From NCBI GenBank assembly GCA_021613535.1, contig CP075492.1, positions 2,976,001 to 3,040,000 of the forward strand: a stretch of DNA of 64,000 bases. The letters are read 5' to 3'. How positions within the stretch are numbered: position 1 is the first letter of the stretch; each line of letters starts with the position of its first letter. This document shows, one piece after another, positions 3,001 to 57,039 of the stretch. This stretch comes from Adineta vaga (taxonomy: Eukaryota > Animalia > Rotifera). The notes beneath the pieces were generated by a model that was given only the letters and a program-made list of their open reading frames with translations, was not told the origin of the DNA and did no database searches. Made by a program: the position numbers and the translations under genes.

Positions 3001-3114
3001 AAAATAACTTCCCTTTATATTATTATAGTATAAAATTGAAAGTATCTTTTGAAAATGTAATTTTGTTTCCAGATTTTAAATTAATCATTCGTTCATTTCT
3101 ATAATCAATTTTTA

Positions 3115-7495: not shown

Positions 7496-9621
7496 TTATT
7501 CATATAATTCAGCACTCTTGAGAGAACTACCATTGTATCCACCAGTAACTAAAACTTTTCCATTTGATAAAATTGTTGCTGTATGTAAATATCGTCCAAC
7601 ACTCATATTCTTTGTTGTTGTCCAATTACCTGTTGTTGGATCATATAATTCAGCACTGTTGAGAGAAAAAATACCATCGAATCCACCAGTAACTAAAACT
7701 TTTCCATTTGATAAAATTGTTGCTGTATGAGAATATCGTCCAACACTCATATTGTTTGCTGTTGTCCAATTACCTGTTGTTGGATCATATAATTCAGCAC
7801 TGTTGAGAGAAAAAATACCATCGAATCCACCAGTAACTAAAACTTTTCCATTTGATAAAATTGTTGCTGTATGTCCATATCGTCCAACATTCATATTGTT
7901 TGTTGTTGTCCAATTACCTGTTGTTGGATCATATAATTCAGCACTGTTGAGAGAACCAGATCCACCAGTAACTAAAACTTTTCCATTTGATAAAATTGTT
8001 GCTGTATGATAATATCGTCCAACATTCATATTGTTTGTTGTTGTCCAATTACCTGTTGTTGGATCATATGATTCAGCACTGTTGAGAGAACCACCATTGG
8101 ATCCACCAGTAACTAAAACTGTTCCATTTGATAAAATTGTTGCTGTATGAGAATATCGTCCAACACTCATATTGTTTGCTGTTGTCCAATTACCTGTTGT
8201 TGGATCATATAATTCAGCACTGTTGAGAGGACCACCTCCACCAGTAACTAAAACTTTTCCATTTGATAAAATTGTTGCTGTATGATATCCTCGTCCAACA
8301 TTCATATTGTTTGTTGTTGTCCAATTACCTGTTGTTGGATCATATAATTCAGCACTGTTGAGAGAAAAAATACCATCGAATCCACCAGTAACTAAAACTG
8401 TTCCATTTGATAAAATTGTTGCTGTATGTCCATTTCGTCCAACATTCAAAATTACTGTTGTTGGATCATTTTCAGCACTCTTGAAAAAAACCACCATCGA
8501 ATCCACCAGTAACTAAAACTTTTCCATTTGATAAAATTGTTGCCGTATGATAATATCGTCCAACACTCATATTTCCTGTGTTAATCCATCCTAAAAAAGA
8601 AAATTGATTTGAATAAAAATAAATGAATTAAGAAAAGGAAACCTTTCGATTGATAAATAATTAAATCAAATTTAATTAATTGATGATAATTTTGATTAAT
8701 AATAAAAATATATTTCCAAATGAATCAAATGAAATAGTTGACGGAGAATTCAATTGTGAATTTGTACAACCAATAATACAAAAAAATCCATTTTGTTTTT
8801 GTTGAATAATTCTTTGATTATTTGAATCAATAATAAATAAAAATTGATAAAAATCTAAAATAATATCCGAAGGACAATTTAAATTAATTGTAAAATTTAA
8901 TGAATAATTTCCGACAATAGTTTGACCAATAAAAGATTCTGATTGAAATAATTGAATTCGATTATTATCACAATCAGCAACAAATAAATTTTGATTTGAT
9001 TGATCAATAAAAATTCCTTTTGGATTTGAAAGTGTTGTTGATGTTGAACCTTTTGTTCCTGTTCCTGCAATAATCATTAAAGGATTCCATAAATAAATTA
9101 ATGATTTTGAAAGAATTTGATGTCGAGTTGAAATTGAACAAAAAAGATTTTGATTCGAATCAATAAAAATATCAAAACATTGTTCACATAAATTCATTTG
9201 TTTTTTTATTAAATTTGTTGAATTTAATTCAATTTGACTAATACCACTATTGAATTCAAATGTATCAAAATATATTTCATTTGTTTCTCCAATAAAAATA
9301 GTTGATGAATTTATTGAAATATTCATCTTTGAATTTAAATTTCCTTGAAGAGAAAGAAGAAGAATTTGTTTTGTTTCTCGATTTGGAATAAAAATTGTAT
9401 TATTTTTATCAATAAAGAAATCTGAAGGAAATAATCCAATTAATGTTTCATTTGCAATTATTGTTCCATTAGAATTCCATGATGAATCAAATGAGATTGA
9501 CGGTTGATTATACGAAATCCCTTTTTGAAAAAGAAAAAGAGGAAAAACAATAAAAAGATTTAAATAAAATTTTACCTTGAATTTGTTGAATTAGAAAAAA
9601 GAGAAAGATTGAAGAAATCAT
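7496..9621 (-). CDS. Signal peptide + NHL-repeat + Kelch-repeat protein (frameshifted at two T-runs)
   Basis: Exon 1 reads MISSIFLFFLIQQIQ (ATG 9621). Exon 2 has NHL motifs (LSNPKGIFID, LFVADCDNNRIQ, LNSPSTISFDSFGN). After an intron at ~8592-8642 come ~8 Kelch units GR-x-x-HTATILSNGKVLVTGG...SAELYDP-x-x-G-x-W. Frameshifts near 8705 and 8490. Confidence 0.75.
7500..8575. repeat. Coding tandem repeat, ~138-144 bp unit, near-identical copies (Kelch blades)
   Basis: ccaccagtaactaaaact(t/g)ttccatttgataaaattgttgc recurs 8 times; variation is concentrated in the GR-xx-H and GG-loop codons. Confidence 0.9.
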
Positions 9622-20731: not shown

Positions 20732-20832
20732 TTTGAGAGTGGGTGAAGGTTTTGATATGTGGGCATCTGACAGCGTGAGAGTGAGAATTGGCGAAGAGAA
20801 TAACGACACCCACACTCGCATCCACCCTCAAA
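20732..20832. repeat. Telomere-like hairpin element at the left edge of the segmental duplication
   Basis: tttgagagtgggtg...cacccacactcgcatccaccctcaaa. Confidence 0.6.
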
Positions 20833-22783
20833 CAAGAAGAATACGAAGATATCAGTAATATATTAAGAGAAATACTAGCATCTAAAAAGAAAATTTATTT
20901 ACAGATATTTTTATTCTTTTTTATAGAAATTTCGAATAGGGAAAGATATTTCAACCTACTCAACTTTCAACAGGTCCAACTTTTCTGAGAGAATTTTGAA
21001 ATCGAAAAAATAATAATTCGATTTGATAAAGATCTAAAAGGATTATCGAATAAATATTCGATTTTTTGTTTTCCTCCCAATTCTAAATGAATTTTTTTGG
21101 ATAATTTTGAAAAAAAAATGGTTTTGTTAAATATATTTTAATCTTACTTGAGACACTACGCATTCATAGGCATGCGAAAAGCAAAGGAAAAGAATCAATG
21201 AAGCATGAAAGTTAAAAGAATACATTATACGGATTCAACGTTGCTTTTTTTATCTTCTATGTTATATAATTTTATCAAAGATGAATTAAGAGACAAATTC
21301 TTTCATCATTTTTAACATAAAAATGTGTTAGAAATAAAAATATTTCAGTCACAAACTTTGAATTGTTATTTTTTTCAAAATAGTAAAGTCATTCTTTGAA
21401 ATAATGGAAAAGGACATGTCTGTTTATTTTTTTAACAGAATTTCGCAGTTGGTGATGAATTAAACAATATTATGAAATTCGTTGTTTTTGTTTCATATCT
21501 GTTTCATCCTACGTCAGAAAATTATTCTGAGTACTCTGATTTTTCTCTGCTTCCCTCAGGATCAAATAAATCGTGAACAAAAAGCATTAATACGACTCAA
21601 GATGACAGTTCTCAAAACGAACGCATGCGTACAGAAATATGAAGAAAAAGAAATCCAGCATTCATTTCAGTCACACTAAGATTTCTTCTTTCCAATTCAA
21701 TTAATCACTATATGGGCACGGCCAAACGTTACGGAATTTCACCATTTCCCGTTTTTTCACGGAGGAAAGTTTAGTGCCATTTTTAGATTAATTTGAACTA
21801 TAAAATTCAACTTTTTTATTCTATGTCGATTGAGAGGATGGATGAGGGTGTGTGTGAGGGTCTGACTGAGATTCTGTTAAAGGATTACGAAATTATGTAT
21901 GAGACGGAATCGATAGAAATTCCGCCAAATTCTCGTCGATTCCGTCTTTGACGAATTTCAGGAAGGGAACTCATTTTCACTATGTGCGATATTACGTAAT
22001 AGGATACATTCTGACTAATTATCTATTGTGTAATTCTGTATATGTTTCATACAAGCCAAAATTTGAATAAATCAATTTCGTCGGTAGAAGTAAATATTGA
22101 CCTTTTAAGAAAAGTTTTGTTAATGTTTACTTCATTTTGTCTATCAATTCATCTATAAGAGAACCGAGATAGATGAAATTGCGTCTCAGTTAATGTTGGT
22201 CTACAATCAATTTAACAGTTTAAACAATTGTGTTGCTCAGAAAGAGACGAAAAATAATGACAATTTCGCTGTTTTATTTTGAATAAATAAACCTTCTCTC
22301 TCTTAGAAAGACTTCGTATACAAACACATACAAGCAATCTATCTGCATTTGATTTTCTTCAACCATCAAAGTTGGTAGTGAACAATGATTAATATGTTTT
22401 TTATCATCCTTTTCATTCTGAAAGTTTCTGTCGTTGATCTTAGCCATTTTTTTGGTGGAACAATAACAGCGTGAGTTTTTGTTATATTCAATATATGTTG
22501 TTCCAAATGTATATATTGTAGGCGTCCTTACAATAATTCGCAAACGACTGGTTCAATACCGATGATAGTGCGTGAACGATGGTCATGGCGTATTACTTAC
22601 TATGCTGTATAGCTTCACGATGCACCACTGCGGTCATTGTTGCACAAACTCCTATGATTGGTGATAGTAATCCTGTCTCATGTATATATGGTGCTGCTTG
22701 TGGTAGTCATTGAAGCACTGGTACTGGTAGGATGAACACAAGTACCTGGTGTACTGATTTTAATAATCCTCTTGTTACTATGT
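20830..22783 (+). repeat. Segmental duplication copy 1 (direct repeat of ~26042-29349)
   Basis: 20830-20900 matches 26042-26112; ~21050-21735 matches ~26735-28390 minus the inserted element; 22033-22783 is almost identical to 28600-29349. Confidence 0.85.
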
Positions 22784-24831
22784 CCGGCGAATACTATAAT
22801 ACATTCTCAATATCGATCAATGTTGCATTTAGTATCGTGTTTTCTGCTGGTAATTGGCTCACAGCTCTAGGTGCGGGATTTGGAAATTTAGGATGGAGTG
22901 TTGTTAGTCGAATTAGTACTATTCTTCGAACAGATGGTTATTTAAATACTAGTCCTGTTGCTGTTTCATTGCCAATTATCTACAAACAAACCAATATACG
23001 ACACACACATGTTGTTCAAATGTCAGATTTTGATGGATCAGATATATTACAATGTCGTTGGTCTACTTCATCAGGCAATGTGAACGGAGCTGATGAATGT
23101 AGTGGTATATGCAACGGTCTTCCTGGTGGTGTTACCGCTATTTTAACTGGAAGCAATTGTACGATGTCCTTCACACTTACTACAGATTACTGGTATTACG
23201 GAGTTGCCTTACAAATTGAAGATTTTTATGATAATGTAGCACTTTTAGCAAATAGTCCAATGAGTTCTGTTCCTATGCAGTTTCTTTTCTATGGTTATCC
23301 AAATACTAGTGGTTGCAGTACTCCACCAGAAATTATTGGTGATCGACCAAACCGAGGTAAGTATTTCAAACTTGCAATCGGAGAAATGGAATGCTTATTT
23401 CTGATGATTTATTTTTAAAGCTTGTATTGGTGTGATGCCTGGTACCAGTATTACTTTACATGTTGTCGTGGATGTGTATTGCAGTGGAAAGAGCATTGTT
23501 GATTTTATTTCGACTGTACCACGTGGTGTAACAAAGAGTAGTATTACAAGTCCTACTACTGGTCAGTACATAACATATTGATTAATTATTTCCTTTACCA
23601 TTTCTTACTTCTAGGCCAATACATAATCTATCTGTATTGGACTCCTCGAACTGATCAGTATGGCCCTCAAGGAATTTGTATGGCAGCAATCGATAATACA
23701 AATATTCAATCCAATCAATAGTGTATCACATATTTAGTTAGTTTTCTGTCACCTGATGTTATTCGACCAACGTTATAGTTCAAGGTTCAGCATCACCAAT
23801 TGGTACTGTCTTTCAAAATCAAACTCTTTTTTCTATTCAAAGTATCAATTCTATAAAGATCTTATTTTGATTACTGTGATTTATACTTTTAGCCTCAAAA
23901 TTCGTCAATCGTCCAACACGAAACGGAACTTTTATCTATTTGAATAGCACTGGTGGTGGTACACTTGTCCAGAAATATGATTGTGGTTGGGACCCAAATG
24001 TGACATATACAGGTTATACAATTGTTATTAATTTTCCAGTCGCACCATGGACTCCTGGTCATTTCTTTTATGTCACAATGGATGGCGGTATAATTCATTT
24101 TTTCTCTCTTCTACATCATTATGGTTCCATATATTCTTCTTCATTTAATTTTAGGTGTTGCCAGTGGAACAGAATTTTGTGGTCCTGAATCTGATTCTAT
24201 TTACGATCCCACCTTTTGGGTATTTAATATATGGAATCCAGCAGTGTCATCAACAACCACAACACCGTTTACCAATAACAGTAACAACAAAACCAACATC
24301 AACAACAAGTATCAATACTTTGGTTTGTTTTATTTCATTTTCTATAATCTTTGATCATTATGAATGTTTTGCTATTTAGTTAACAACAACTGGTATTGTT
24401 ATTACAACAACTTCACCTGTTACAACAACAGCAACAACTGCATCAACTACAATTGGTAAATAAAACAGATATTCTACATTTTTATTTTGTTTTTCAATAA
24501 TTTCATTTGATTTAATTTAGTTTCAACAACAGCTGGATCAACTCAATCAACGACAACAACTGAATCAGCCTTTCTTGCGATATCTCCAAAAGATTTTGTA
24601 AGTTTCTAATTGAGTTTTGCATAGATTAGTAATGAAAAGTTGTTGATTGTAAGAAGAACTATGTAGACCACCTATTGCATTGATGACAAGTCTTATATTT
24701 ATTGTAATGATGTTTCTTCACGCGCAGCTATGTATGCTGCATTTACAAAAGTGAATAAGATGTTTAATCCTTCACATATTCAAGCTAAAACACGACATCG
24801 ACAACGAATGAAACGAATCATGGGATCTTAA
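22385..24831 (+). pseudogene. Multi-exon cell-surface protein (signal peptide, SHFxGGT motif, Cys-containing ectodomain, Thr-rich stalk, TM), disabled
   Basis: Exon 1 MINMFFIILFILKVSVVDLSHFFGGTITA; D-x-D-G-x-D-x-L-x-CRW and ALQIEDF...SSVPMQF motifs; ~7 short introns; stops/frameshifts near 22608, 22711 and 23720. Confidence 0.65.
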
Positions 24832-25029
24832 AGACCATTTCATTGATTTGAACACATAAAACTAATCGAGAACTATTTTGATTTGATTTTCGAATTTCAT
24901 TATTATATTTATCTCAAATAGACTTTTCTGTGATCCGTGTGTTATCTGAATAAAAAATATAATCTCGAGAATGTGGATGATTTTATGGATGTATGCATTT
25001 TTGCTTTCAGCAAACTTACACTCTCAAGA

Positions 25030-25074
25030 TTGAGTGGGTGTGCGTGAAGAAGAGATTCCTTGACCCACACCCAA
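25030..25074 (+). repeat. Telomere-like hairpin element
   Basis: ttgagtgggtgtgcgt-gaagaagagattccttga-cccacacccaa. Confidence 0.7.
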
Positions 25075-25152
25075 TACGATTCGTTAGTTCTTAATCAAGA
25101 AATCATCTATAGAATTTTCAACCAAATTATATAAAAATGGAAATATTCATAT

Positions 25153-26091
25153 TTAATAAGTTCGATTTCCATATGTTTGAGATTTATAAATTGAATGAGC
25201 ATGTCTTCCATAATGTTGTAAACTGTGCATAGAATTTGTTAAGATTTGTAATTCAAATACTTGATTTAATTTTGGTCCTTGAAGAATTAAATGAATAGAT
25301 TGATAACCATTATGTTTTGGAAATTGAATATAATCATGTATTTTTATAATTTGATAATATTTTTGAAAAAGATTTACTAAATAATAACATTGATTGATTG
25401 TTTGAACTGAGATTTCAATTGAAATAATATCATAAAGATATTTCGGAAATAATTTCAATTTTTCCCAATATGAATAAAATGTTTTTAATCTTCCATTGAT
25501 TCGATATGAAAATGAAACTTGTTTGATTAAAAATGAATTTAATTCAATTAAAAGACAAGTTAATAAATTTGAATCAAATTGTTTCATTTTATAAATTGAA
25601 ATAATTTGTTTTCGTTCTTTTCGATGAAATTTCTTAAACATTTGATCATCAATTAAACTAATTAACATATGTGTACCATTATATTTATCATATTCTGTAA
25701 TAGATTTATTTACTTTATCAATTGGTTCTTTATATAAATCAATTAATTTTTCATAAATTTGATTTTGAAAATCAAGATTTTTAATAAAACAAATTTCAAT
25801 TTGATTTATTTGATAAAAATTCCAATTTGATTTTAAATAAAATTCATTACAATAAATTCCATAATTTAATTGGCAAATAAAATTATTAAGATTTGAACTT
25901 GTGATAAATTCATTAGATTCATTAAATCCTTTTAAGATTAAATTATAATTATTACATTTCCATTCATTGATTTCTTGTTCAAACGAATCTATTCTTTGAA
26001 ATTCATATTCAATTCTTTTACAATATTCAGTTTTTAACTTTAAACAAGAAGAATATGAAGATATTAATAATAGTAAGAGAAAGACTAACAT
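25153..26091 (-). CDS. RelA/SpoT (p)ppGpp-synthetase-domain protein with N-terminal hydrophobic (signal-peptide-like) segment
   Basis: Intact 312-aa ORF with synthetase motifs in order: GRLK, DIISIEI, DYIQFPKHNGYQSIH, FELQILT, AHSIYK. N-terminus MLVFLLLLLISSYSSC. No recognisable HD motif or TGS/ACT domains. Confidence 0.85.
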   Translation of the reverse strand: MLVFLLLLLISSYSSCLKLKTEYCKRIEYEFQRIDSFEQEINEWKCNNYNLILKGFNESNEFITSSNLNNFICQLNYGIYCNEFYLKSNWNFYQINQIEICFIKNLDFQNQIYEKLIDLYKEPIDKVNKSITEYDKYNGTHMLISLIDDQMFKKFHRKERKQIISIYKMKQFDSNLLTCLLIELNSFLIKQVSFSYRINGRLKTFYSYWEKLKLFPKYLYDIISIEISVQTINQCYYLVNLFQKYYQIIKIHDYIQFPKHNGYQSIHLILQGPKLNQVFELQILTNSMHSLQHYGRHAHSIYKSQTYGNRTY

Positions 26092-27257
26092 CTAAAAAGA
26101 AAATTAATTTACCGCAACATTTTTTACAATAAAGATACAAACTGAATGATTTATCGTATGTTCTGAAAGTTTTCACCCAGAATAATTCGTTCTTCACTAT
26201 AGATAGAGTCAATATTGAGAATAGTTCATATGTAATAGACTAAATCACATATATACAGCTGATTGAGCATGGCTGAACGTAAGATTTGTCGGTATGCATG
26301 AGATTTAGGAGTTATAATCACGTTAACCTTTCTCAGGGAGTTGTGAAATCGAATAATAACTATAGAGAGGCATTCTAGCTTAGCTTGATTGCAAAATACG
26401 GTGCGCGGAGCTGTAGAAATCTCTGCTAATACTTTTGAATTTCGAGGAAATAAATTATATCGTTGCATGAATCAATTATCTTTTCAGTCAATTGTAAGAG
26501 ATTTAGCAATTGCTTTTTTCGAGCGTCCTTTTGTTTTTTTTATAGAAATACTGCCTTAATTTACCGAAAAAATCCATATTTTATTTTGAGTAAATAGATT
26601 ATCATGTTCAGTTACTCAGCTCTTCAATACTCTTTGTCCGATAGTTGATCGACGCTCTGTTCTTCAGATTTGAGAGGTCAAATAATCTGTCGAGAGAAAG
26701 AAACTCAGTAATACGTTACAAAGGGCATCCGATTAATAAATCGAATGGTTTTCTCTCAATTCTAAATGAATCTTTTCGGGTAATTTTGAAAAGAATATGA
26801 TTTTTTTAAATATATTTTAATCTTACTTGGGATATTATGTATTCATAGGTATGTGAAAAGAAAGAAATGATTGTATTTGAAAGCCACTCATCCGATATAT
26901 GAGAAGAAAAGGAAAAAAATCAATGAAGCATGAAAGTTAAAATGATATATTAAACAGATTCAACGTTCCTTTTTTATCTTCTATCTTATATAATTTTATC
27001 AAAGATGATTTAAGAGACAAATTCTTTCATCTTCCTCAACATAAAAAATTGTGAAAAATAAAACGATTTCATTCACAAAACTTGAATTATTATTTTTTTT
27101 CAAAATCGTGCAATCATTGTTTGAAAAAATGGAAAAGAATACATTAGTAAAGGTGATGCAAAAGTACATGTCTGTTTATTTTTTTTACAGAATTTCGCAG
27201 TTGGTGATGAATTAAATAATATTATGAAATTCGTTTTTTTTTGTTTTATACTTTTTT

Positions 27258-28146
27258 GGCACTAGGACAATTCGTCGCACGGACTATTCGTCGCATGGAT
27301 AATTCGTCGCAAGCTCATTTTTGTTAATTGATGTACCAACATATGTGATTAAATTAATGAGTAATTATTCCATTTCCAATGGACTTGTGAGAAACATCAC
27401 GTTGAATTGCGAGAAAATCGACACATGAAAAATGATCGGAAACTAAAGTGTCAAAAAATCCAACAAAGATTTCAGTTTTAAGAAAAAATCTATCCATCCT
27501 ATTATGAAACAGTATTTCCATTTGATATCAAAACTGAAGTGGTTTTTTAATGTTAATATTGTAAATTAAATAGCGCTGAACGCAATAATCCAATAAAAAT
27601 ACTCTAGAAGTAGTCTGACTAATTTGATGAGACTTTCTTTAATAAAATGTGCCTATCTTTACGTTATAAAGCTCTTCCTTTTGTTGGTGAATATCTAAAG
27701 ACTTTGTCAGAAAATTCAGATCACTTCGCATCGATGATCGTAATATTAAACAAATACGATCATAAACATATAGTTGTAAGAGAATTACGGCTCCGATTGA
27801 TACTACTAGTTTTTATCAAAAATACCAAATAATCTATAAGTTTTGTTATGTAATTAGCTTTAGAAATTTCCATATACAAATTCTATTGAATAAAAATACT
27901 TCATAAACTATTTTCTCAAATCATTGAAGTTTTCTTCACTTATTCATTACTACATATTTTTTCCACTAGTCTGTTTCAATTTTCGTAAAATAATTACTTG
28001 TGTGTCATATATTTTATCACTGTTATGAAACATTTCTCTCTCTTTCTCTACCTGTATGTTACGTTAATCTTGTTACAATTAATTCAAATATTGTGCGACG
28101 AATTGTCTGACGACGAATTGTCTATGCGACGAATTGTCCAGTCACC
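27258..28146. mobile_element. Non-autonomous DNA transposon with GG..CC termini and 8-bp TSD (Merlin/MULE-like)
   Basis: Three tandem ggac(a/t)attcgtcgca-like units at each end, inverted. TSD actttttt at 27250-27257 and 28147-28154. The empty site is visible in the duplicate near 21495-21510. Confidence 0.88.
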
Positions 28147-28952
28147 ACTTTTTTCATCGTACATCAGAAAATTATTCTGGGTACTTTGATTTTTCTCTAC
28201 TCCCCTCGAGATCGAAGCATCTATTATCGAAAGCCATTAATGCGACTGAAGATGTAAGTTCTCAAAACAAACGCATGCATATAAAAATATGAAGAAAAAG
28301 AAATTCAGCATGCGTTTCAGTCACACTAAGGTTTCTTCTTTCCAATTCGCTTAATTACTATATGGGCAAGGTTGAGAGTTACGGAATTTCAATTTTTCAA
28401 CTTGGGAGATATAACTTTATATCTCCTCAATAACAAGAGAAATGTATCTGAATTTTTAGGCATATACGAAGATTAATTAGTTGTATCAGTGTTGAAAATT
28501 TCATTTAGTTATCATAAGCCATAGTAAAGTTATTTAAAAACCGTCGTCCGTTACGGAATCTAATCATTTTCCTCTTTTCCATGGAGGACAGTTTAGTGCA
28601 ATTCTGTATATGTTTCATACAAGCCAAAATTTGAATAAATCAATTTCGTCGGTAGAAGTAAATATTGACTTTTTAAGAAAAGTTTTGTTAATGTTTACTT
28701 CATTTTGTCTATCAATTCATCTATAAGAGAACCGAGATAGATGAAATTGCGTCTCAGTTAATGTTGGTCTACAATCAATTTAACAGTTTAAACAATTGTG
28801 TTGCTCAGAAAGAGACGAAAAATAATGACAATTTCGCTGTTTTATTTTGAATAAATAAACCTTCTCTCTCTTAGAAAGACTTCGTATACAAACACATACA
28901 AGCAATCTATCTGCATTTGATTTTCTTCAACCATCAAAGTTGGTAGTGAACA

Positions 28953-29349
28953 ATGATTAATATGTTTTTTATCATCCTTTTCATTCTGAAAGTTTCTGTC
29001 GTTGATCTTAGCCATTTTTTTGGTGGAACAATAACAGCGTAAGTTTTTGTTATATTCAATATATGTTGTTCCAAATGTATATATTGTAGGCGTCCTTACA
29101 ATAATTCACAAACGACTGGTCCAATACCGATGATAGTGCGTGAACGGTGGTCATGGCGTATCACTTACTATGCTGTAGCTTCATGATGCACTAATGCGAT
29201 CATTGCTGCACAAACTCCTATGATTGGTGATAGTAATTCAGTCTCATGTATATCTGGAGCGGCTTGTGGTAGTCATTGGAGCACTGGTGCTGGTACGATG
29301 AACACAAGTACCTGGTGTACTGATTTTAATACTCCTCTTGTTACCATGT
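28953..29349 (+). pseudogene. 5' part of second copy of the SHFxGGT surface-protein gene, truncated by an LTR
   Basis: Near-identical to 22385-22783; has its own TGA near 29183; homology stops at the LTR end. Confidence 0.8.
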
Positions 29350-29647
29350 ATTAGAGAGAGACAAATGTGTTTCTTTCGAATGTTCGTAGTTTATTTAGAA
29401 AAAATGTAAAAACACGCGCACACGTCACACCACTCTCTTCTCTCTCTCACTTTACTGAGAAAAACATGTATATATATATAATCACACAAAGAAAAGTGAA
29501 TACACATATATCACGAATAAAGAGAAGAAAGAGATGATATCATCAAAAGAAAGGATCTAGGTCGAGAGAGAGATGGAAGATGAAAGACGAGATCAATGAA
29601 AAGAAAGAGAAGACTAGAATATGAAGAGATAGGTGTCGCCTGTAACA
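29347..29647 (-). repeat. Putative 3' LTR (~300 bp)
   Basis: Minus strand TGTTACA...TAATACA with AATAAA near its end. The outer end is fixed by loss of homology to the duplicated host gene; the inner end is inferred (no second LTR to compare). Confidence 0.55.
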
Positions 29648-29895
29648 GTCGACCCAACGCGGAACGATGTGTGTCCGCACACATATATCTGACAGAACGA
29701 AAGAAAAAAGTTTAACAATGAACGCGACAAAAAATAACGAAAAAAAAACAAACGAGGAAAGGAAAGAAAAATATCTATATGTGTATATGTATATATATGT
29801 TCATATAGAAAGAACGAGAAAAAATAACGAAAAAAAACACGCGTATACATTTCAAACGATGGAAGGAAAGGAAAAAAACATATATGTCTACATAC

Positions 29896-31458
29896 CTAAT
29901 GATTTCTTCTCTTCTTCCTCTTGCTGAATCGATAATAATGATCTTCATCGAAGCTTCGACTATGAAAAAGTTCTTCGAGTTGATCAGCTGCTGTTGGACT
30001 TTTCACTCCAATAAATACTTTTCCATGCTTGATGTTGATGTTCAAAAATTGGATGTTCTTTGATCGTAATATTTGTTTGATGTGAGCATGTTTGAATAAT
30101 CGATGGACAGGATAAATGACTTCTGATCGATAACGATTTGATCGGCGTCGACGATTACTTATTTGATTTGGTGTTGGATTTTCCTGTAAATATAACTGTG
30201 GACCCAAATAATAAGAATTTCTTGCCTTTTGTGATTCATCCTGAGCATGAATTCTCTTTCTTTCTTCTGGTATTGGATCAGGTTGTGGAAATGGTCGATG
30301 AAGTTTCATAACTTCTGGAAATTCGTCATCACTTATTGGTTCATATACATGTGGTGTTGGTTGAACTTTTTGTGATGGTGATTCCATTGGTTCTTCTTCC
30401 ATTTCGACGGGCGATGATTCATTTTCATGGTCGAATATACCTATATCAAAATCAGATGGTGTTAGTTCAAGTTCAATACTTATCGATTCTTGTTGGCCTG
30501 GATGTTCCTCTTCTCTTGAATCAACATATGCATGAGCTTCAGGCTCATCTCGATTTGGTGGTTTTAATTCAACTGATGGTTCTTGTTGAGTTGTTGATTC
30601 GACTGGAACATCTTTTTCATTTTCGACTGTTGCTGGTGGTGTTAATACAAATTTAATTAAATTCATATCATAAGCGATTTTTGTAACAGCGAAAACATCA
30701 TTAATCGCATATTCTTCTAACATATGTCGATATTTTGTTTCTTCCTGTACACGATAATCATATTCTCGACCATGGACGTATTTCGGCTTATATGTGTCGA
30801 GAGAACGATCGATACCACATGACCATTTGGCTAGTGTAGCTGTTTTATCTAAATACTGGCCGAATGTAGATTTGATCACAGCTTGTAGACCATATAGTTC
30901 ATATCGATCATATTCATTTTGAACATTGACGCCATCTGCTTTGATTTGACCACTAAACAAATTCAAATTCATAAATGATTTTAATTCGTCAGCTACGTAA
31001 CCCCAAGCATAAATACGATTGTTCGATGTGAAAATAATCGAACATAATTGTCGAATTTTTATAAATAACGGCGAGCTGATTGGTGGTAAATAATTCACTT
31101 CTATTATTATAACAATAGATGGTGAATTTGGACGAATGAATTCGACTTGAATTGTTGCTGCTGAAATTCGATTGTATGCATCGCCTTCTGTATCCAATGT
31201 GTAATTAAACGTTAATTTTGCTTCATCGATTAATTTATCCATTGTTTCCATGTCGGTTTTTTCATGAATATAATAACGAGAATAATTTTTTGGTTGTTCG
31301 AATGGTTTTAATTTTCCTTGTCGACATAATTCTTGTAATTCACGTTCTTTTTTTGCTTTCTTCGGGTTCCATCGTTCATTTCGTCGTAATAATTCTTCTA
31401 ATGGTGGAATGTATCGATCATTATAATATTTTCTTGGGCATGAACTCTTTCGGTCCAT
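29896..31458 (-). CDS. Retroelement ORF3: DEDDy (RNase D-like) 3'-5' exonuclease with acidic/Pro-rich tail
   Basis: ExoI YTLDTEG, YGLQAVI...YLDK...W, ExoIII YAINDV. Polypyrimidine tract + ttccag acceptor 1 nt before the ATG. Confidence 0.75.
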   Translation of the reverse strand: MDRKSSCPRKYYNDRYIPPLEELLRRNERWNPKKAKKERELQELCRQGKLKPFEQPKNYSRYYIHEKTDMETMDKLIDEAKLTFNYTLDTEGDAYNRISAATIQVEFIRPNSPSIVIIIEVNYLPPISSPLFIKIRQLCSIIFTSNNRIYAWGYVADELKSFMNLNLFSGQIKADGVNVQNEYDRYELYGLQAVIKSTFGQYLDKTATLAKWSCGIDRSLDTYKPKYVHGREYDYRVQEETKYRHMLEEYAINDVFAVTKIAYDMNLIKFVLTPPATVENEKDVPVESTTQQEPSVELKPPNRDEPEAHAYVDSREEEHPGQQESISIELELTPSDFDIGIFDHENESSPVEMEEEPMESPSQKVQPTPHVYEPISDDEFPEVMKLHRPFPQPDPIPEERKRIHAQDESQKARNSYYLGPQLYLQENPTPNQISNRRRRSNRYRSEVIYPVHRLFKHAHIKQILRSKNIQFLNINIKHGKVFIGVKSPTAADQLEELFHSRSFDEDHYYRFSKRKKRRNH

Positions 31459-32008
31459 CCTGGAAACAAATTCAAAGAAAACGAAGAAGAAGAGAGAGAA
31501 AAAAAGAAAAAAAAAACTTCCCTTGTTGATGTTTGTTGATTGTGTTTGTTGATGGTGTATGTTGATATAATGAGTCCAATTATTAGCTAATATATCTAAA
31601 GTGTGAAAAGTAAGTGAATATCTTCAGGATTTACATGAACCCTCTGCCATCGTTCCATTTGAGTAAAATGGCTATAATAAAATGGGTATTCTCTATACCT
31701 CCATATAAGAAGAAAAACACTTTGTTATTCTGATTCGATAAGTGAGATGTTCGATCGTAATATATGGATCGATTTGGAAGATAAAAGAATTGTTATATAT
31801 GTAGTAAAGCGGTGAACTCGAATAGACAGGAAAGATAAAAGATCCTAGTGAAGAAGTATACGGTGGAATAGGTGTAAGGAAAGAAAGAAGATATATGTAT
31901 ATATAGTGGAAGGAAAGGAAAGAAAAGAAAAGACTGTGAATGGCTTGTAAACACGTGTGTTATCCATTTAATATATATATATAATTCGGTTTATTAATCC
32001 AAATATAT

Positions 32009-34947
32009 TTAGTCCATGTTTTTCCGTTCAAACAGGGATATGATGACATCTATTGTAACTTGTTTGATAAGTGTCGGTTTTTTAATATGTTGAACGATGA
32101 ATGTTTTTGTACCTAATTGTCTTATAATGCGGAATGGTCCTTCGTATCGAATGTCAAATTTGCTTCGACGATTGAGTGTTTTGATAAGTACTAAATCATT
32201 AATTTTGTGCGTCGGATTCGTTCGATATCGATCATATCGTTGTTTGTATTTCATCTGACGATATAAAATATTGTCTTTTGCTTGTTCGGCTAATGTCGAC
32301 AGGTATTGTTGTAATTTGTAAGAGTGTTGTGGATCTTGTGTAAGTGAAACGACGGGTCGTTGTTGATCGAAGGGTAATGTCGGTGAGCGACCGTACATCA
32401 TTTCGAATGGAACTTGTCCGGTTGTTGAATGGATACTAGTATTGTAGTTGAATGTGACGAAAGGCAATTGTTCATCCCAGTTCGTTCGATTTTCATTTGA
32501 TAGTGCAGCTATTTTTGCATCCATTGTTGCATTATATCGTTCGATTTGTCCGTTTGTCATCGGATGATAAGGTGTGGAGTATAAATGAGTAACACCAATT
32601 TTCTTGAATAATTCAGTCATCATCGAAGCGGTAAAATGTGTACCATTGTCGGTGAGAATGCATTTAGGAGTTCCATATTTAAGGATCACCTCTTCAGTAA
32701 CGAATTTTGCTGCTGTAGATGCGGTACAATCACGTACTGCTTTTGTAATGATGAATTTTGACAGGACATCGGTTAATGAGATGATGTATCTGTTTCCATT
32801 TTTTGTGGTTGGCGTTATTGGTCCATGAAAATCCATGGTAAGTAGTTGCCATATTCCTTCTGGTGGTTTGATTGGTTTTAATAGACCTGGTGGCTTTCGT
32901 CGTGTGTGGTTGTTTTGTAAACAAGGAATGCAACTTTTAATATGGTCGCGTATGTCGGATATCATATTAGGCCAGAAGTATCGTTGTTGAATCCTATGGA
33001 TTGTTCGATCTCGACCAAAATGTGCTCCATTTGCTGGTGTATCATGATAAATTTTTATAATGTTTGATCGAATACGTCCTTTGGGTACGTAAGGTACTGG
33101 TGGTGTTGAGTTTTTCATTAACATATCATCTTGTACAAAGTATTCGTGGAACTTGTCAATGTTCATCGTAATATGTTTCGTTTCTTCGTCTTGATGCTGT
33201 AGTTCCTGGAGTTGTTCGTGGGTGAACGGTATGATTCGATTGTCGATCTCCACCGGCTGATGGTGTTGAATATTCTTCTGGACGCAGGAACTGTCCTCTA
33301 GTGAGTCATCGTTCCTCTTCGGTTGTCCATCGTGGGATTGATCGATCGGATGATCGTTGTTCTTCTGGTCTTGTTGTTGTCGTTTCATTTGAGCTCGGGT
33401 GGTGACGGATGTTATGATAGATGTTACCAGCGAGCTTTCGGTTTGTGTTGTTTGCGATCTCGTAGGAACGTAATCGTCTAGATCGTCGGATGCGTTGTCT
33501 GACGGTGAACGTGATAGATAGTCTGCTACTGTATTGTGTTTTCCTTTGATATATCGAATAGTGAACTTGTACTGTTGCAGCTTCAAACGCCATCGTTCGC
33601 ATTTGGAATTCAGTTGCTGTTTTAAGTTGAATGGTAACAGAGGTTTGTGGTCTGTTTCGATTATAAATTCCCGTCCATCTAAATATTTGTGCCATTTTTC
33701 AATTGCATGTATAATGGCATAACATTCTTGTTCCGTTGCGGGCCAGTTCATTTGTGTTGTTGTAAATTTCTTCGATAAGTATGCTACCGGTAAATCTCCA
33801 TTCGAATGGGTTTGCATCAGGACAGCTCCTATTCCGATTTTTGATGCGTCGGTTTGAATTTTAAATGGTAGATTTTCATCGGGTATGCGTAATATTAGGT
33901 CATTTGTTAATATTTGTTTCAATTCATGGAATGCATGAAGTTCGTCGTCTAATAGTTGAATGGGTACGGCTGGCATTTTGTTTGATCGTTGTTCTTTCGT
34001 AGTAGGTGCATACTTGTACAGAGGTTGTGCTATCATAGAAAATTTTGGTATGAACTTGCGATAATATTCTGCTGCCTTGACGAATCGAAATGCTTCCTTT
34101 GCTGTTGCTGGTTGAGGAGTTTCCAATAAAGCATGAATATTGTCAGCGTTCGGTTTGATATTCCCGTGTTCGATGTGATGACCTAGATAATCGATCGATG
34201 TTTGAGCTATGTGGCATTTTCCAACGTTGAGACGAAAGTTTGCTTCGTGTAATCGATTCAGAATATCATCCAGGTGAACTAAGTGTTGATCGAAAGTTGG
34301 TGAATATATGATGACATCGTCTAAATATGCTAATGCGTATTTCCATCTTGTAGGTCCGAGAATTTGACTAACAATACGTTGAAATGCTGGTGGACCGTTC
34401 GTAACTCCTTGTGGTAACACTGTAAATTGATAATGTTGATCTCGGGTTGAAAATGCTGTTTTTGGTCGATCTCTCGCATCCAACCCAACTTGAAAATAAC
34501 CCGATTTGAAGTCAATCGTTGTATAATAACCGGCTTGTGATAAATGGTCAAAGATGTCGTCGATTCGAGGTATTGGAAATGCATCCTTCGTCGTGATGGC
34601 ATTCAGTTTCCTATAATCGATACAGAATCTAACTGAACCATCTTTCTTGCGTACTAGAACAATCGGTGAAGACCAAGGAGATGTTGATTCTTCGATCACA
34701 CCTTGTTTTAATAACTTATTTATTTCCTCTTGTCGAATCCGTTCGTCCTTGTACGAGACACGGTATGGTGGAGTGAAGACGGGTGGATGATTACCAGTCT
34801 CTAGTGCATGCCGAACCGTTCCTTTGATAATAGATGATTTGCGAAGATCAAGTAATTTGCCATATTTCCATAAGATTTTTTGTATTGCTTGTTGGTGATC
34901 TTTGTTTTGTATGTGTGATGTTAATTCTTCGATTTGTTCTCGTATAT
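32009..34947 (-). CDS. pol: Pol: reverse transcriptase, RNase H, integrase
   Basis: SPWSSP...RFCIDYRKLN, PQG, YLDD; TDAS...E-x-ECYA...TDHKPL...NTVADYLSR; HHCC, D-D-E (MDF, TDNG, ERYN), GPF module. The first ~30 codons of the track ORF (to 35038) come from flanking DNA. Confidence 0.95.
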
Positions 34948-35982
34948 GGGTGAATCCATGAGGACCCAGCCACTTTTTGGAAAGGTCTTTTTTTTCGATT
35001 TTTTTTTCTTCAAAAGGTTGATCTCGACTAGAAAACACTTTTAGTTAAAAAAAATTAAGTACTCTTACCCAAAAACTCCGAGTTTTTGAGCATTTTCTCG
35101 GAACACCTATGGTGTATTTTTATATATAGAAAAATGTCGAGAAAAAGCGTGGAACTTCTTTAAAAGTATTCTTTTTGGAATTTTTTGGTTTTCAGAAATG
35201 TAAACAAAGTCTAGAAACATGTTTCCTGAGGAACATCAGACCAGTTCTATTGAAGGTTTCGGAGGCTCAGTCATTTTTCTCTGAACATATCAATAGATAT
35301 ATTTCGTCAACCTAGATTGTATTCAATTAAATTGAATAATTTTTATTTTCTTTTACTCGTGGAATACAACAACTTCCATGACACTATCCTAACAGAACGA
35401 AATCATACTAACGACTCTGCCCTGATAACTGAAAAGATTTGCTGTTATACTGTCTTTCACAAATGAGACCATGGAATCGAAAGAGACATTACTATCGAAA
35501 TGATAGATTTTCTAGAATACAGACGTTTAGGTTGCATAGTGTATTTTGTACGAAGTATTGTAAATGAAGAGAACAAAATATGAAAGCATAAAGCAGGATT
35601 ATTTCCTTTTCTATAATAAGAACAAATTCAATAAACAAAATGGTATAATCGTCATAGAAATATTCTTTTATGATTTTACAAGGTGAGCAATGAAAAAGAA
35701 CTGCGTTGTTTTTCTTTGATCTATACAAAGACGAAGATTGTTCACAAGGAAGAGTGTTTATTTTATTGAACAAACGACGCGTGGGAAGATAACAAGAGAA
35801 TATAAAGTTGATAAAGTAAATTGCCGATATAAATGATGAAATGTTTAGTAATTCTAAAATATGGCACTGTTGACTAGAGAATTTAGTTGAGATTGGAATT
35901 GATAGAAATATAAAAATAATATCTATATATATGTTTTCTTATTTTATAGAGAAGAAAATAGAATTAGTAAATGTATAAGTAA

Positions 35983-36468
35983 TTGAGTGTGGGTGTGGGT
36001 GCGGGTGCTGGTGTATTATTATCGTTATTACTATATGGATAAACCTCAATTTCAATATTTGACTATCGAAGGAGCTCTTTAGCTTCCTTACCATATTCAA
36101 GGAACTGTTTTGTTGTTGTCAGTTTTCTTTTACGAATTTCATACTGAAGGGTGGATTTGGCATTGAGGCTGTAGGTGTCAGTGGCACAACCAAGGGGAGG
36201 CAAATAGGCAATTGCCCATCTTGAGGGTAGGTGTGGCTCAAGGTATCTCTTCTTCACCCACCCACCCACACCTACACCCTATTCTTTAGAAGTCATTTAT
36301 GTAATATAAGATTTACAACGACTGTAGAGATATATTACTTGTAGAAATAAAATACTGAAGACAATAATCTTTATTTCATTTTCTTCAAAATCAAATGTTA
36401 ATATTGAGAGAAAAGTTTAGGGTGTGGGTGTACTATCTTATTCCACACCTAACCAACCACACCCTCAA
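35983..36468. repeat. Cluster of three telomere-like elements plus an hAT-like terminus
   Basis: 35983 ttgagtgtgggtgtgggtg; 36220-36280 reverse copy of the gaagaagagataccttga hairpin; 36416-36468 tttagggtgtgggtg...cacaccctcaa; 36179-36218 cagtggcacaaccaaggggaggcaa...gcaattgccc. Confidence 0.65.
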
Positions 36469-38164
36469 CTACGAACAGATATTGTGTGTAATGCAGATAA
36501 TAAATATAATGGAACTTTCGATAAATGTATAACTCTTAATACAGAAAAGAAAGCGATTAAAACTCATCTTGAAAATTGCTTTGAGAAATATATGATATAT
36601 TATATGGGAATGATGAAGTTTGAAACAATTAATAGGAAAATAATTGAAGTTTACCTTGGTTTTACTGTGATCAATGAGCTGATCTTTATGAAAAACAAAA
36701 CAAATTTGGATATGAGTTAAAAGATTTAATCAAATCATTCATAGTGTTGTTTTATTTCTTGAACATATTTATAAATATATAAAACCATCAAAAGAAATCG
36801 AATTCTATTCAATTTTAATATATCAAGTTTACAAATATCATTTAATTAAAATTACATGCAAATCCTCCAGGTGGGTTTTTCTTGCTGTCATTTTTTGAGT
36901 ACAAAAATATCGATTTAAAAAAGTGTATTTTTATCTTATATTAAACTCAATTTCTTTTTTATTCGCGCGACTTTTGTTGCTTACTTGATTCATTACGAAA
37001 TTTAAAAATAAATGCTGTCAAAAATATAGATTACTTATGTAATATAAGTTATCTACTCTAGTAAAATTATCATGCATTATAATATCAGTCGATAACATGT
37101 GGGAAAATACATTTTTTCTCTCAAAAATGTATTCTGTAAAGGATTTGTACTTCTAAGGTGCTGAATATCAAAGTTTATTACAGTTTCTTATTTTTATATG
37201 TATTATACAAGTACACATATCTTGTTTGAAATCTGTCGTAAATATTTTAAAGATACTTCCAATAGTCTATGGTATATTTGCTTATCATATTTACTTCATC
37301 GTAAAAAAACATTTGGCTAACAGTATTTACAAGTGATGAAATTCTTTGACCTATTTTTCTTCGTTTTTTATGTATTCATGGCTCTATATGAGAACAAGTT
37401 AAAGAAGATTTCTAGTTTTACAGCACGTTTTTTATATTGCGTATTTATATTCTCGCATTGACTAACAATTGAATCGACAAAGAATGGTAATCTATATTAA
37501 ATACGCATTCATAAATTATAATTAGAATAATTACATCCGACGATTCCCTAAAAAAAAAGAAATATATACGATATACCATTTGTACAATGTTATATACTTT
37601 GTTGCTCGTATTTTTAATCTTCAATTCAACATAATATGTTCAAGATTATGTTCTTGAAGCAAATCGTGCTAGCTTATGAGTAATTGATGATTTTGGCGAT
37701 CTATGAAAATGTTATTTCAATGAATGTCAAAAAATAACTCATGTACTCAAAATTATTAATAACTCCTCTTGCATTTTTCGATTCTGTACTGGATTTTAAC
37801 CAAAATGCTAAAAACTGTCGATTCTTTAGATTTCTCTGAATTCGTATAACCATTTGTTTAACAGTTCGATCAATCTGAAAATATATGAACGTTTTAAAGA
37901 GATGTAATACGAAAATTATTGTCAAGTGTCTGCTTAACTCTATTGAATACATAAATCAAATGATTGATTCTTGTAACGAATTAAATCATAAATAAGGTTA
38001 CAAATAATACTTTCGCCTGAATCACATTACCTTGTTTTTTAAAACATAGAGAAAAGACGTTATGTGACTTTAGATTCCATTTTTAAAAATAGATTGACAC
38101 GTGGGCTCAAAAATATAAACAGTCAGCAGGTTTTTAGACAGGCTACCTGTATATTTCCCATCAT

Positions 38165-38320: not shown

Positions 38321-38385
38321 TTCATATATTTATATATCTATAGTTGATTTTTCTATGTATACATCAAACCAAATAAATAACTGAG

Positions 38386-40501
38386 ATGGCAAATATTGAA
38401 ATGCATGATGGAGATACATTACAAACTCAAATGTCTATTGATGGTGCTCAACAAATTACTCAATTATCATCACGTATTACAATAACATTTTATAATATTT
38501 CAAAAGTGATCAATGTTCCTGCTAAAATCATTGATCCATCATCAAAAGAAAGATTTATTCAACGAATTCTTCTTGATCATGTTTCTGGTCAAATTCATTG
38601 TGGAGAAGTTGTTGCACTTATGGGACCATCAGGTAAGAATAGAACAAGAGATTGTCTCTTTTCTAATATATATGTATATGTTTGTTGATATTAGGATGTG
38701 GAAAAACAACATTATTAAATACATTAGCTGGTCGAGCATTAAACGGTGTTACCGGTAATATATGGTTTAATAATCAAAAATATGATAAAATAATGAAAAG
38801 AAAATTAGCTTATGTTCTTCAAGAAGATTTATTTTTTGATAATTTAACTGTGAAACAACAATTAACATATACAGCATTACTTCGATTACCAAATACTTTA
38901 TCAAGAAAAGATAAAATTGCACAAGTTGAACAAATTATTGATCAATTACATATTCGAAAATGTGTCAATACACCCATTAAATTAATTTCTGGTGGAGAAA
39001 AAAAACGTGTTAATATCGGTACTGAATTATTAACAAATCCAAGTGTCATTTTTCTTGATGGTAGATTGATTCTTTTTTTTTCTTGATAAAATCAAAAATG
39101 AAATAAATTCTAATTTTTATCTTAGAACCAACATCTGGTTTAGATAGTACATCAGCAGTAGCTTTAATGGATATTCTTCATGATTTAGCTAAACAAGGTA
39201 AAACAATAATAACATCAATTCATCAACCATCATCACAAATATTTCTTTCATTTGATCAACTCATTTTATTAGCTGATGGAAAAACTATTTTTATGGTAAT
39301 TATTAGATAAGAGATATTCTATTGAAAAAGAAATGTCTCTCTCTCTCTCTCTCTATACATTTGTGTATAGGGTAAACCATCAAATGCTTTATCTTATTTT
39401 GCAACGATGGGATATGAATCACCGATACAATATAATCCAGCAGATTATGTAATGGATTTAGTGAATCAAGATATGAAGATTCGTGAAGAACTTAAACAAG
39501 CATATATTCAAAATCAAATCATTTCAAAAGATAATCAAGGTAATCAATATTTGATTAGTGAACCATCAGGAAATGAATCTGATCTGACTAATCCAGATAA
39601 TATTGATTTATTAGTCAATAAAAATGAAGGAAAATGGCCAATTGGATTTTTATCACAAGTGTTAATCTTATTTCATCGCAGTTTTCGAATGACTGCCAAT
39701 AAACAATTTACTCTCCTTAATATAGGTCAAGCATTAATTCTCGCTATCATGACTGGTCTTTGTTGGTTACAAATGGATTTTTCTGAAGACACAATACCTG
39801 ATCGATCATCATTTACGTTTTTTATTATGACGTTTTGGCCATTTCATACATTATTAGTTGGTTTATTATCCTTTCCATTTGAGCGTCTTGTTATTGCAAA
39901 AGAACGAGCAAGTGGTTCATTTCGTTTATCATCATATTTCATGGCAAAATCATTAGCTGAAACTCCACTGAAGTTAGTTTTACCAACATTATTTCTTTTG
40001 ATTGCTTATTGGATGGCAAGAATAAATAATAATTTTGGTGTATTTCTTGGTATTCTTGTTTTTCAATTATTAGCTGTCATTGTCGCTGAATCGCTGGGTC
40101 TATTCTTAGGTGCAGCATTTAAAAATTTACAATATGCCATTAAGACTGCTACTGTCATTCTGTTTGGTTTGACACTAGCTGGTGGATTTTTTATTCAAAA
40201 TTTACCACATTGGTTAGGTGTATGGGTTATATGGTTATCTTTTTTTGAATATGCATATAGAGCATGTCTCCGGTTACAATTCAAAGGTGGACAGTTATAT
40301 CAATGTGTGGATGGATCAATCATAGCTTCGTGTGAAAATAATATTACTGCCACATTTGATGGTGATCAAGTGCTTCAATATTTTAATGGTGGGATTGATA
40401 TTGGTTATAATTTTTTAGTTCTTTTTGGTATGTTTATATTTTTTCGAATTGCTGCATATCTTGCATTACGATTTATTAAAAAAACTGATGGTCGAACATA
40501 A
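38386..40501 (+). CDS. ABCG half-transporter, copy A
   Basis: Exons ~38386-38632, 38695-39060, 39127-39296, 39371-40501. Walker A GPSGCGKTT, signature ISGGEKKR, Walker B FLDEPTSGLD, IHQP, NPADY, C-terminal TMD. Confidence 0.93.
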
Positions 40502-56034: not shown

Positions 56035-57039
56035 AAATTTACTTTTAATAAGAAAAAAAAGTCTTGTACACAATGGTAACAACAACAAATATTGTAAATG
56101 TTTCTAAACACAATTTTTATACTCTTAAGAAGAAGAAGAAGAAAAAGAAAGACGAAGAGAAAGAGAAAAATACAGACACATTAAAATGTATTTTGTTTTC
56201 GATTTATATAAAAAACTTTTCGTTCGAATAAAAGACACGCATGAAATAAATTCCATTGCAAGATAGACAAATCTCATTGTTTTCTTATCAAAGAGCGAAC
56301 AGAATTTTTTGAAGGAATTTCTAAAATTGTTTTATAATATAAATTGAATACACGGGCGGATCCAGCTCTTTACCTACCGTTGCTCTCTAGTAGAGATTTA
56401 TTTCTCATAAAACATGAAAAGTAAGATTGGGAAAAAAGAAGAAATATATCAAATATCAATCCATTAATCTTAAATATCATATAGTTGGAAGCGTTATTAT
56501 CTTTAGTAGATCATTATCTTGTTCAACAGTTTCGATCCTATGACACTCTTTCGGAAAGAAAAGAATGTAAATTATCATGTGATCTGATACCAGCTAATGT
56601 TGATGAACGAGAACAATTAGCGAAGATAAAATCTTTTGTTGATTATTTAGCAGTTGATTTAATTCATCATTTGAAAATTTTCATTACATAATTAATAGTG
56701 AATTGTTCTACCATAGTTTCATCTGTCACATATCTTGCCCAACGTCTATATTATCATTAAATTTCGAAATGCAACAAATCATGAAAGTACAAGTATGGCT
56801 TTGAATTTGTTGCATCACTAGAAAGAGTTTTATTGTAAACATATTGTGATGGAGATGAGTAATTCTTCTCTCGTATATTTATTACACTTTTTTAAAATAA
56901 AAACATAATGAATAAATTAATCGACAAATAACGAGGGAATCTTTTATTTCTTTTTATATGTGCTTGATAAAGAAGAAAGAACGAATAAGTGACATGCAGT
57001 TAATGTAATTGAAAGAGAGAGAAAAAGACTGAATATAAA

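Follow-up and report, generated by a model that had tools for sequence, protein, structure and literature searches.

The closest functional precedent for the protein described here (P0001) would be the Sec-exported alarmone synthetases (EAS), a class whose mode of action it would resemble and which, in the available text of PMC12691689, includes SaEAS of Streptomyces albidoflavus (8VX3) and VpEAS/RelV of Vibrio. These proteins combine a signal peptide, a feature predicted for P0001, with a lone synthetase (SYNTH) domain and, like P0001, have no adjacent immunity gene, and the same text establishes that secreted RelA/SpoT homologue (RSH) synthetases working at low nucleotide levels exist, that SaEAS and Apk1 reach ~100,000 turnovers per minute with a canonical site and that EAS enzymes without their leader inhibit the growth of E. 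coli. EAS differ from P0001 in being bacterial (the string 'eukaryot' is absent from the main text of PMC12691689) and in having a canonical active site, and a Cys-rich domain such as that of P0001 is not described for them in the available part of that paper. The best sequence and fold matches of P0001 were long RSHs (B. subtilis Rel, 8ACU/6YXA; S. aureus Rel, 7OIW; RelSeq, 1VJ7; E. coli RelA, 5IQR/5L3P), which share with its residues ~140-306 the linker helices, the H-x-x-Y-K ending, the Asp, Glu and Gln, and the G-loop Tyr. Unlike these, P0001 is without hydrolase and C-terminal regulatory domains, has a leader, a Cys-rich domain and sequons added and two near-universal Arg replaced, and is found in an animal host. 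RelP (SAS2, 6EWZ/6FGK) and RelQ (SAS1, 5DEC) are SYNTH-only, as is P0001, in which equivalents of their R78, K80, S84, K88, D107, E174, K147, N149, Y151 and H190 are present; however, R112 and R91 have no equivalents, the similarity is weaker (E 6.5e-9 to 0.18) and both proteins are cytosolic. In the pseudo-SYNTH domain of A. baumannii SpoT (SpoT-Ab, 7QPR/7QPS), the adenine-stacking Arg is replaced by Glu, as in P0001 and its relative P0002, but this domain is joined to a hydrolase, which it serves, and is also without the first Arg, the catalytic Asp, the G-loop Tyr and the catalytic Gln, all of which P0001 has (PMC9974481, available text). Tas1/Apk1 (6OX6), CapRel (7ZTB) and FaRel2 (8PU4) have the fold in common with P0001 (Z 8.3 for Tas1 and 8.9 for CapRel). 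A lone SYNTH domain in a eukaryote is known from the divRel SAS of Dictyostelium, ascomycetes and diatoms, which the available text of PMC3153485 ascribes to bacterial transfer. The same text (Atkinson et al.) reports no SAS in animals and dismisses a Capitella RelA/SpoT as probable contamination, and in the available text of PMC7666150 ppGpp is detected in flies and human cells, the metazoan ppGpp synthases being unknown.

P0001 is encoded in the window (the whole stretch of DNA that was analysed, 64,000 nt of Adineta vaga) by an ORF of 312 aa at 25153..26091 of the minus strand, which runs from an ATG at 26091 to a TAA at 25153-25155 without an intron and specifies, in order, a leader, a Cys-rich domain, the linker helices of a long RSH and a SYNTH domain; the plus strand across the locus contains many stops. 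A first-pass annotation made from the letters had described this intact intronless frame correctly, and the Pfam search which it had proposed gave a match to PF04607 (RelA_SpoT) at residues 200-305 with 70.6 bits (cut-off 27) and an E of 1.7e-19. All of the synthetase motif blocks that it had listed were found (GRLK, D221, DYIQFPKHNGYQSIH, ELQILT and HSIYK), the DxxxxR motif reading DIISIE, and the host-like composition that it had noted was borne out by a GC3 of 8.0%, which is inside the range of 7.3-16.9% of ten other non-transposon ORFs of the window (33% for the gypsy pol ORF). The gene content of the window is animal-type, with a 7tm_1 gene (E 1.7e-6), a weak nuclear-receptor match and NHL and B-box genes, and a DNA contig of 973 nt was an exact match to 26043-27015. 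Among the ORFs of the 64-kb window, no candidate partner ORF of at least 90 aa was seen beside P0001 on the minus strand, and no antitoxin-like or delivery gene was seen adjoining it. The leader remnant and local duplication claimed earlier were found as a truncated, frameshifted duplicate of the gene start at 20830..20912 (minus strand; 84.7% over 85 nt, E 4e-18), in which a 2-nt insertion after the ATG at 20881 leads to a stop after 9 codons. Further duplication blocks at 21067..22783 (unstranded) match 26746-29349 with 75-97% identity and include the start of the neighbouring plus-strand gene.

Several other features of the window were recorded. Convergent with the synthetase gene is a multi-exon gene at ~22570-24831 (plus strand) that has Cys in its N-terminal exons and encodes a mucin-like stalk rich in Thr. 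Its RNA contigs are of high depth and contain numerous variant letters, which suggests that it belongs to a large family of expressed paralogues; its exon at 22714-23418 had no Pfam match. A second copy of the 5' part of this gene lies within 28596-35044 (96.8% identical to 22028-22783, ending at 29349) and is adjoined by a gypsy-type element with pol (RT, RNase H, integrase) at 32009-35044, near which a 575-aa ORF (29896-31623) had no Pfam match; no LTR pair of at least 60 nt was found at 28500-36500. Two inverted ABC-2 (ABCG-type) transporter genes (38377-40501, plus strand; 42901-45027, minus strand) have N-terminal exons that are identical and membrane domains that have diverged. An ADP-ribosyltransferase-domain gene (55189-56103, minus strand; Pfam ART, E 2e-5) is located amid a B-box/NHL-repeat array at 54050-63062, and a Kelch propeller gene (7496-8512, minus strand) contains six near-identical repeats. 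The intronless RTA1-like gene at 3085-4041 (plus strand; Pfam E 2e-61), from a family which we take to be fungal, is likely a further horizontal acquisition.

An exhaustive search of 1.84 billion representatives yielded three matches to P0001 well over the bacterial background, namely P0002 (E 8.5e-60, full length), P0003, a protein of Rotaria sp. Silwood2, and P0004, which together with its cluster mate P0152 is from Adineta steineri; the Adineta proteins carry the automatic UniRef label 'RelA/SpoT domain-containing'. These bdelloid proteins are the closest named relatives of P0001. Eight proteins (group B) were added via the lower matches P0020 and P0092 and a profile search, which brought the family to 13 sequences; these make up 10 clusters when grouped at 90% identity and are 24-42% identical to P0001. 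A profile search with group A gave no new member, and a word-indexed protein search with P0001 alone gave no relative among 622 candidates, the method being insensitive, as known relatives were missed. When the whole architecture was searched for in GTDB (14 of 64 parts) and in metagenomes (16 of 64 parts), the best 80 loci in each case matched only from residue 102 onward.

By sequence, the domain of P0001 is nearer to long Rel/RelA than to RelP/RelQ, the match to B. subtilis Rel (residues 148-306) having an E of 3.3e-16 and those to RelP and RelQ an E of 6.6e-6 and 0.16, respectively; the family profile matched E. coli RelA with an E of 4e-28. The best NCBIfam match was TIGR00691 (81.7 bits, cut-off 499.2), and NF053588 (YjbM) gave 23.7 bits against a cut-off of 320, so that P0001 is not assigned to the RelP/RelQ type. 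No match to HD, TGS or ACT domains was found in P0001 at an E of 0.01, and the architecture is therefore not that of a long RSH. An AF2 model of P0001 had a pTM of 0.78, and the top 11 VIA rows of the structure comparison were all RSH synthetases (Z 8.0-12.2), the best being RelA/Rel (Z 12.2 and 12.0, rmsd 3.8-3.9, ~160 aligned). Since the homology begins in the pre-SYNTH helices, the gene looks like a long RSH of which the hydrolase has been replaced and the C-terminal half removed, and a bdelloid ancestor likely gained the SYNTH domain and linker helices horizontally from a bacterial long Rel/RelA. The comparison of the model with SaEAS (8VX3) gave a Z of 8.0 (rmsd 3.6, 145 aligned); however, the family profile matched SaEAS with an E of only 0.36, which is not significant, and the secreted state is thus probably of independent origin. 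The interpretation offered by the first-pass annotation therefore stands with respect to horizontal acquisition, secretory-type conversion, the loss of both Arg and local duplication, now for a conserved family, but not with respect to kinship with RelP/RelQ SAS, toxSAS or Tas1, as long Rel/RelA is nearer.

The phylogeny suggested in that annotation was calculated from 39 rows and 201 columns with nine of the 13 family members, 28 of the 67 rows of a larger unfinished tree (long-branch rows included) having been excluded, and it contained no RelP, RelQ, EAS or fungal rows. The family formed one clade (support 99/96), within which group A (97/88) and group B (100/99) were recovered, and was joined (100/99) to nine alphaproteobacterial-type rows. 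Among them, one is Ca. Tisiphia, another has its best plasmid-collection match in Azospirillum, and in two of them the gene order is presumably rpoZ-rel. Grouping of the family with five alternative rows, which we take to be gammaproteobacterial RelA-like, was not rejected by the AU test (p 0.22), and no donor is therefore claimed. A giant-virus or phage donor found no support: three distant SYNTH-only matches were obtained in viral contigs with the family alignment, but group B gave none there, none of 30 matches in phage records covered 80%, and no BFVD match was closer than 26% identity. Separately, a Rickettsiales response-regulator domain was seen fused to a lone synthetase domain in P0037 (Trichoplax and coral symbiont clusters), and P0079 was identified as an ankyrin-repeat RSH of Ca. 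Tisiphia.

The SYNTH core of P0001 (residues 196-304; 25180..25506, minus strand) keeps R201, K203, S207, K211, D221, K259, N261, Y263, H267, E280, Q282 and H299. Residue positions were assigned from the spacing of the motifs relative to S. aureus RelP (PMC5794853 and PMC13710873, available text) and T. thermophilus Rel (bioRxiv 10.1101/670703 and PMC9974481, available text), and counts were made in the 13 family members and in 145 other RSH matches. K203, S207, K211, D221, D253, Y263, H267, E280, H299, Y302 and K303 were invariant in all 13 members, and R201 was present in each of the 11 members having that segment. Q282 was kept in 12 of 13 (the Rotaria protein has Lys there) and K259 in 10 of 13, while position 261 is Asn in four and Ser in nine, both of which occur in active SAS (PMC13710873 / PMC5794853, available text). 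The Mg-binding Asp, the catalytic Glu and Gln, the G-loop Tyr and the phosphate-binding Lys/Ser are thus in place. Identity to P0001 was higher in the SYNTH core (38-54 of 100-109 positions) than in the linker (13-24 of 72-90) or the N-domain (13-27 of 68-88), indicating that constraint is concentrated on the active site. Both Adineta steineri models (P0004 and P0152) are without the same 23 residues carrying G200-R201, which reflects either a mis-called intron or a real loss.

Two Arg replacements in P0001, read by the first-pass annotation from DIISIE and ELQILT, were confirmed, and both residues are lost in 13/13 members. By motif-spacing alignment, E226 (25414..25416, minus strand) occupies the site of the adenine-stacking Arg (SaRelP R112, Rel-Tt R277) and L284 (25240..25242, minus strand) that of the ExQIRT Arg. 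At the former site the family (n=13) has Lys in nine, Glu in two (P0001 and P0002) and Thr in two, as against Arg in 144 of the 145 other RSHs; at the latter it has Leu in five, Val in four, Lys in two, Ser in one and Ile in one, as against 142 Arg and three Lys among the 145, and Arg was also found in 163 of 164 domains from fetched loci. As both losses were seen across the whole family, they are a family trait and not drift in a single copy. Lys is a partial substitute for Arg. In SaRelP the adenine of ATP is sandwiched by two arginines, R78 and R112 (PMC5794853, available text), of which the family keeps the first as R201 and has Glu, Lys or Thr in place of the second in all 13 members, leaving the sandwich incomplete.

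These residues bear on whether the family could have become a secreted pseudo-enzyme that makes no use of ATP and binds (p)ppGpp or GTP/GDP with Mg2+, which would let it sense or scavenge the bacterial alarmones that are set free from food. A pseudo-enzyme had already been suggested in the first-pass annotation, and we regard this reading as the main rival but rather unlikely. It would account for the residue lost in 13/13 belonging to the pair between which the adenine of ATP is held, for the retention of the guanine-side (K259, N/S261, Y263) and phosphate/Mg contacts, for the change at E226, which is the same as in SpoT-Ab, and for the two gene models without R201 and the one member without Gln. 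The dead SYNTH domain of SpoT-Ab, however, has lost D272, Q347, R249 and Y329 in addition to having E267 for R277 (PMC9974481, available text), and the equivalents of these four are all kept in the P0001 family. D221 (13/13) and E280 are invariant and Q282 (12/13) nearly so, unlike in a known pseudo-SYNTH, where the catalytic Asp and Gln are lost, and neither a membrane anchor nor a signalling domain that could relay binding was seen in P0001. The kept residues would also hold Mg2+ and the (p)ppGpp product, and enzyme and binder are therefore not separated by them. A loss limited to the adenine pocket region, with product and metal contacts persisting, would likewise suit a protein that destroys alarmones by holding (p)ppGpp or (p)ppApp and removing or transferring the 3'-pyrophosphate (hydrolysis or the reverse reaction), so recycling the nucleotides of digested bacteria, and a digestive setting would provide its substrate. 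This is improbable, and we know of no RSH synthetase domain shown to be a hydrolase, which counts against it. Moreover, this task is generally performed in animals by Mesh1, though that protein is cytosolic (PMC3153485, available text).

A signal peptide is predicted from hydropathy at residues 1-16 (26044..26091, minus strand), with cleavage near S15/C16 as judged by eye. The hydrophobic leader described earlier for P0001 reached 3.81 on a 9-residue hydropathy window and is followed by no transmembrane-length segment (best 19-residue window 1.44), and no KDEL-type ending was found in the protein. A 9-residue hydropathy of at least 2.5 within the first 25 residues was observed for 6 of 9 family N-termini, compared with 2 of 140 other RSHs; P0020 and P0165 as called are without a leader, and P0162 has one (2.47) only from an inner Met. 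The '~170-aa Cys-containing region' of the first-pass annotation does contain Cys but consists of two parts, a Cys-rich beta domain of ~85 aa predicted in the structure model (residues 17-105; 25777..26043, minus strand) and a helical region (residues 106-195; 25507..25776, minus strand) that from ~140 is homologous to the pre-SYNTH helices of long RSHs and holds N138-G-T and C179. C24, W44, C73, G78, C81, C101 and N105 of the Cys-rich domain are invariant in 9/9. When folded by itself, this domain gave a low-confidence model (pLDDT 55.5) with a best structural match of Z 3.8, and an ESM Atlas search with it returned no usable match. N-x-T sequons occur in all 13 family members, at aligned N138 in 5/5 of group A and at a different aligned site in 8/8 of group B, with a variable middle residue in both groups. 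C179 is present in 13/13 members compared with 1/145 other RSHs and suggests a new putative disulfide with C235. Sequons and family-specific Cys together point to the secretory pathway, and the group B sequons suggest a eukaryotic host for that group.

As the first-pass annotation had proposed, an exported protein of this kind could in principle be an antibacterial effector that enters bacteria and poisons them via alarmones or tRNA modification, like Tas1/Apk1, toxSAS or mislocalised EAS, which would be in keeping with the growth inhibition by leader-free EAS enzymes, with an N-domain that could be an uptake module and with the upregulation of foreign genes against pathogens in bdelloids (bioRxiv 10.1101/2021.09.04.458992, available text). 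We hold this to be improbable: SaEAS and Apk1 are very fast with a canonical site, whereas the P0001 family has lost two near-universal Arg, among them the R277-type stacking Arg, mutation of which strongly lowers the activity of T. thermophilus Rel. The similarity of the family profile to CapRel, FaRel2 and SaEAS was not significant (E 0.19-0.36) and Tas1 was absent from the matches listed, no delivery domain was seen in P0001, and a disulfide-bonded glycoprotein would have no evident route into the bacterial cytoplasm. No RelA/SpoT/ppGpp annotation was found in 13 of the 16 supplements of PMC11258130 on pathogen induction, some of which were partly covered.

The acceptor-like tract reported earlier just before the ATG is present, as a pyrimidine tract and AG at 26092..26110 (minus strand; ttttctttttag) that also occurs in the duplicate and represents a possible 5'-UTR intron or splice acceptor. 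It would allow an intracellular ppGpp synthetase of the animal, paired with Mesh1, if an upstream exon or another start removed the leader; the RNA contigs leave the 5' end uncovered, and ppGpp is detected in animal cells, the synthetase being unknown (PMC7666150, available text). However, a Met and hydrophobic stretch stand at the same place in five further members of the family, one of them an annotated Adineta gene model, and the conserved sequons and Cys favour a secretory route, making this reading highly improbable. The shared start position of the relatives makes an intron in the 5'-UTR more probable than a coding exon upstream of the ATG.

None of the listed sequencing runs with P0001 sequence is recorded as RNA; run X1, however, behaves as RNA, in that it skips a 51-nt GT-AG intron in the window. 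It contains three contigs (depth 2.5-3.4, strand unspecified) over 25188-25735, corresponding to 548 of the 939 ORF bases, and run X2 of the same study contains a single contig at 25109-25274. No X1 contig was found over 26084-26965, the 5' end of the ORF was covered by no contig in the runs examined, runs X8 and X9 had no real ORF cover and X3 covered only 24956-25117, blanks that are not evidence of absence. These contigs are a weak sign that P0001 is transcribed. The low RNA depth, the broken local duplicate and the possibly damaged Adineta copies would be expected of a contaminant or a decaying, functionless transferred gene, but there is very little chance of this: the GC3 is like that of neighbouring genes, the start and upstream DNA are duplicated inside an animal contig and matched exactly by the 973-nt DNA contig, assemblies from two bdelloid genera contain relatives, and the active-site residues do not vary across sequences of 24-42% identity.

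As the metal-binding residues are kept and two Arg replaced, the members of the P0001 family are probably exported enzymes that modify nucleotides by an altered chemistry. Our main reading, to which we assign a probability of roughly 0.45, is that P0001 is secreted and still catalyses the transfer of pyrophosphate, with a donor pocket that has been rebuilt, acting on the nucleotides of lysed microbes. What was observed comprises the domain content, the family, the pattern of residues and the make-up of the leader, from which secretion, catalysis, substrate and biological role are inferred. Following entry into the ER, the protein would form disulfides, be N-glycosylated and be released into the lumen of the gut, into a compartment like a lysosome or onto the surface of the body. 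D221 and E280 would hold Mg2+, Y263 would stack the acceptor base and R201, K203, S207 and K211 would hold phosphates, while the absence of the second adenine-stacking Arg may result in low ATP turnover or a relaxed choice of donor; the pyrophosphate would likely be moved onto a guanine-type nucleotide. Free ATP and GTP are scarce outside cells. Substrates might speculatively come from microbes broken during feeding, comparable to what is proposed for the Streptomyces EAS in the available text of PMC12691689, and the product might be a signal or modulate surviving microbes. Against activity would stand the Glu of P0001 at the R277 site, the same change as in the dead SpoT-Ab domain, together with the loss of the ExQIR Arg, the A. 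steineri models without the GR strand and the Lys for Gln in Rotaria; R277A is also among the changes with 'strong impact' on Rel-Tt activity (bioRxiv 10.1101/670703, available text).

No description of the P0001 family was found in the literature on rotifer or bdelloid ppGpp, alarmones, RSH, Mesh1 and horizontally acquired animal synthetases, subscription papers being mostly outside the scope of this search, and the family is apparently an undescribed, conserved variant of the RSH synthetase in an animal. The surprise is lessened by foreign genes being common in bdelloids, and, since all named members come from this group, the family does not account for the ppGpp of flies or humans. The finding is nonetheless an animal-encoded RSH synthetase domain under evident constraint, with a natural, conserved rewrite of the ATP-adenine pocket and a secreted state apparently reached independently of bacterial EAS. 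The protein is small and easily expressed, and enzyme, binder and degrader would be separable by one assay series. It is possible, and we put it forward tentatively, that bdelloids possess a family of secreted enzymes, old and diversified and derived from RelA, which produce or remodel nucleotides of the alarmone type extracellularly from ground-up microbes. If true, the family would provide the first alarmone synthetase encoded by an animal, its donor pocket differing from that of every characterised RSH and an uncharacterised disulfide-rich domain standing where the hydrolase was.
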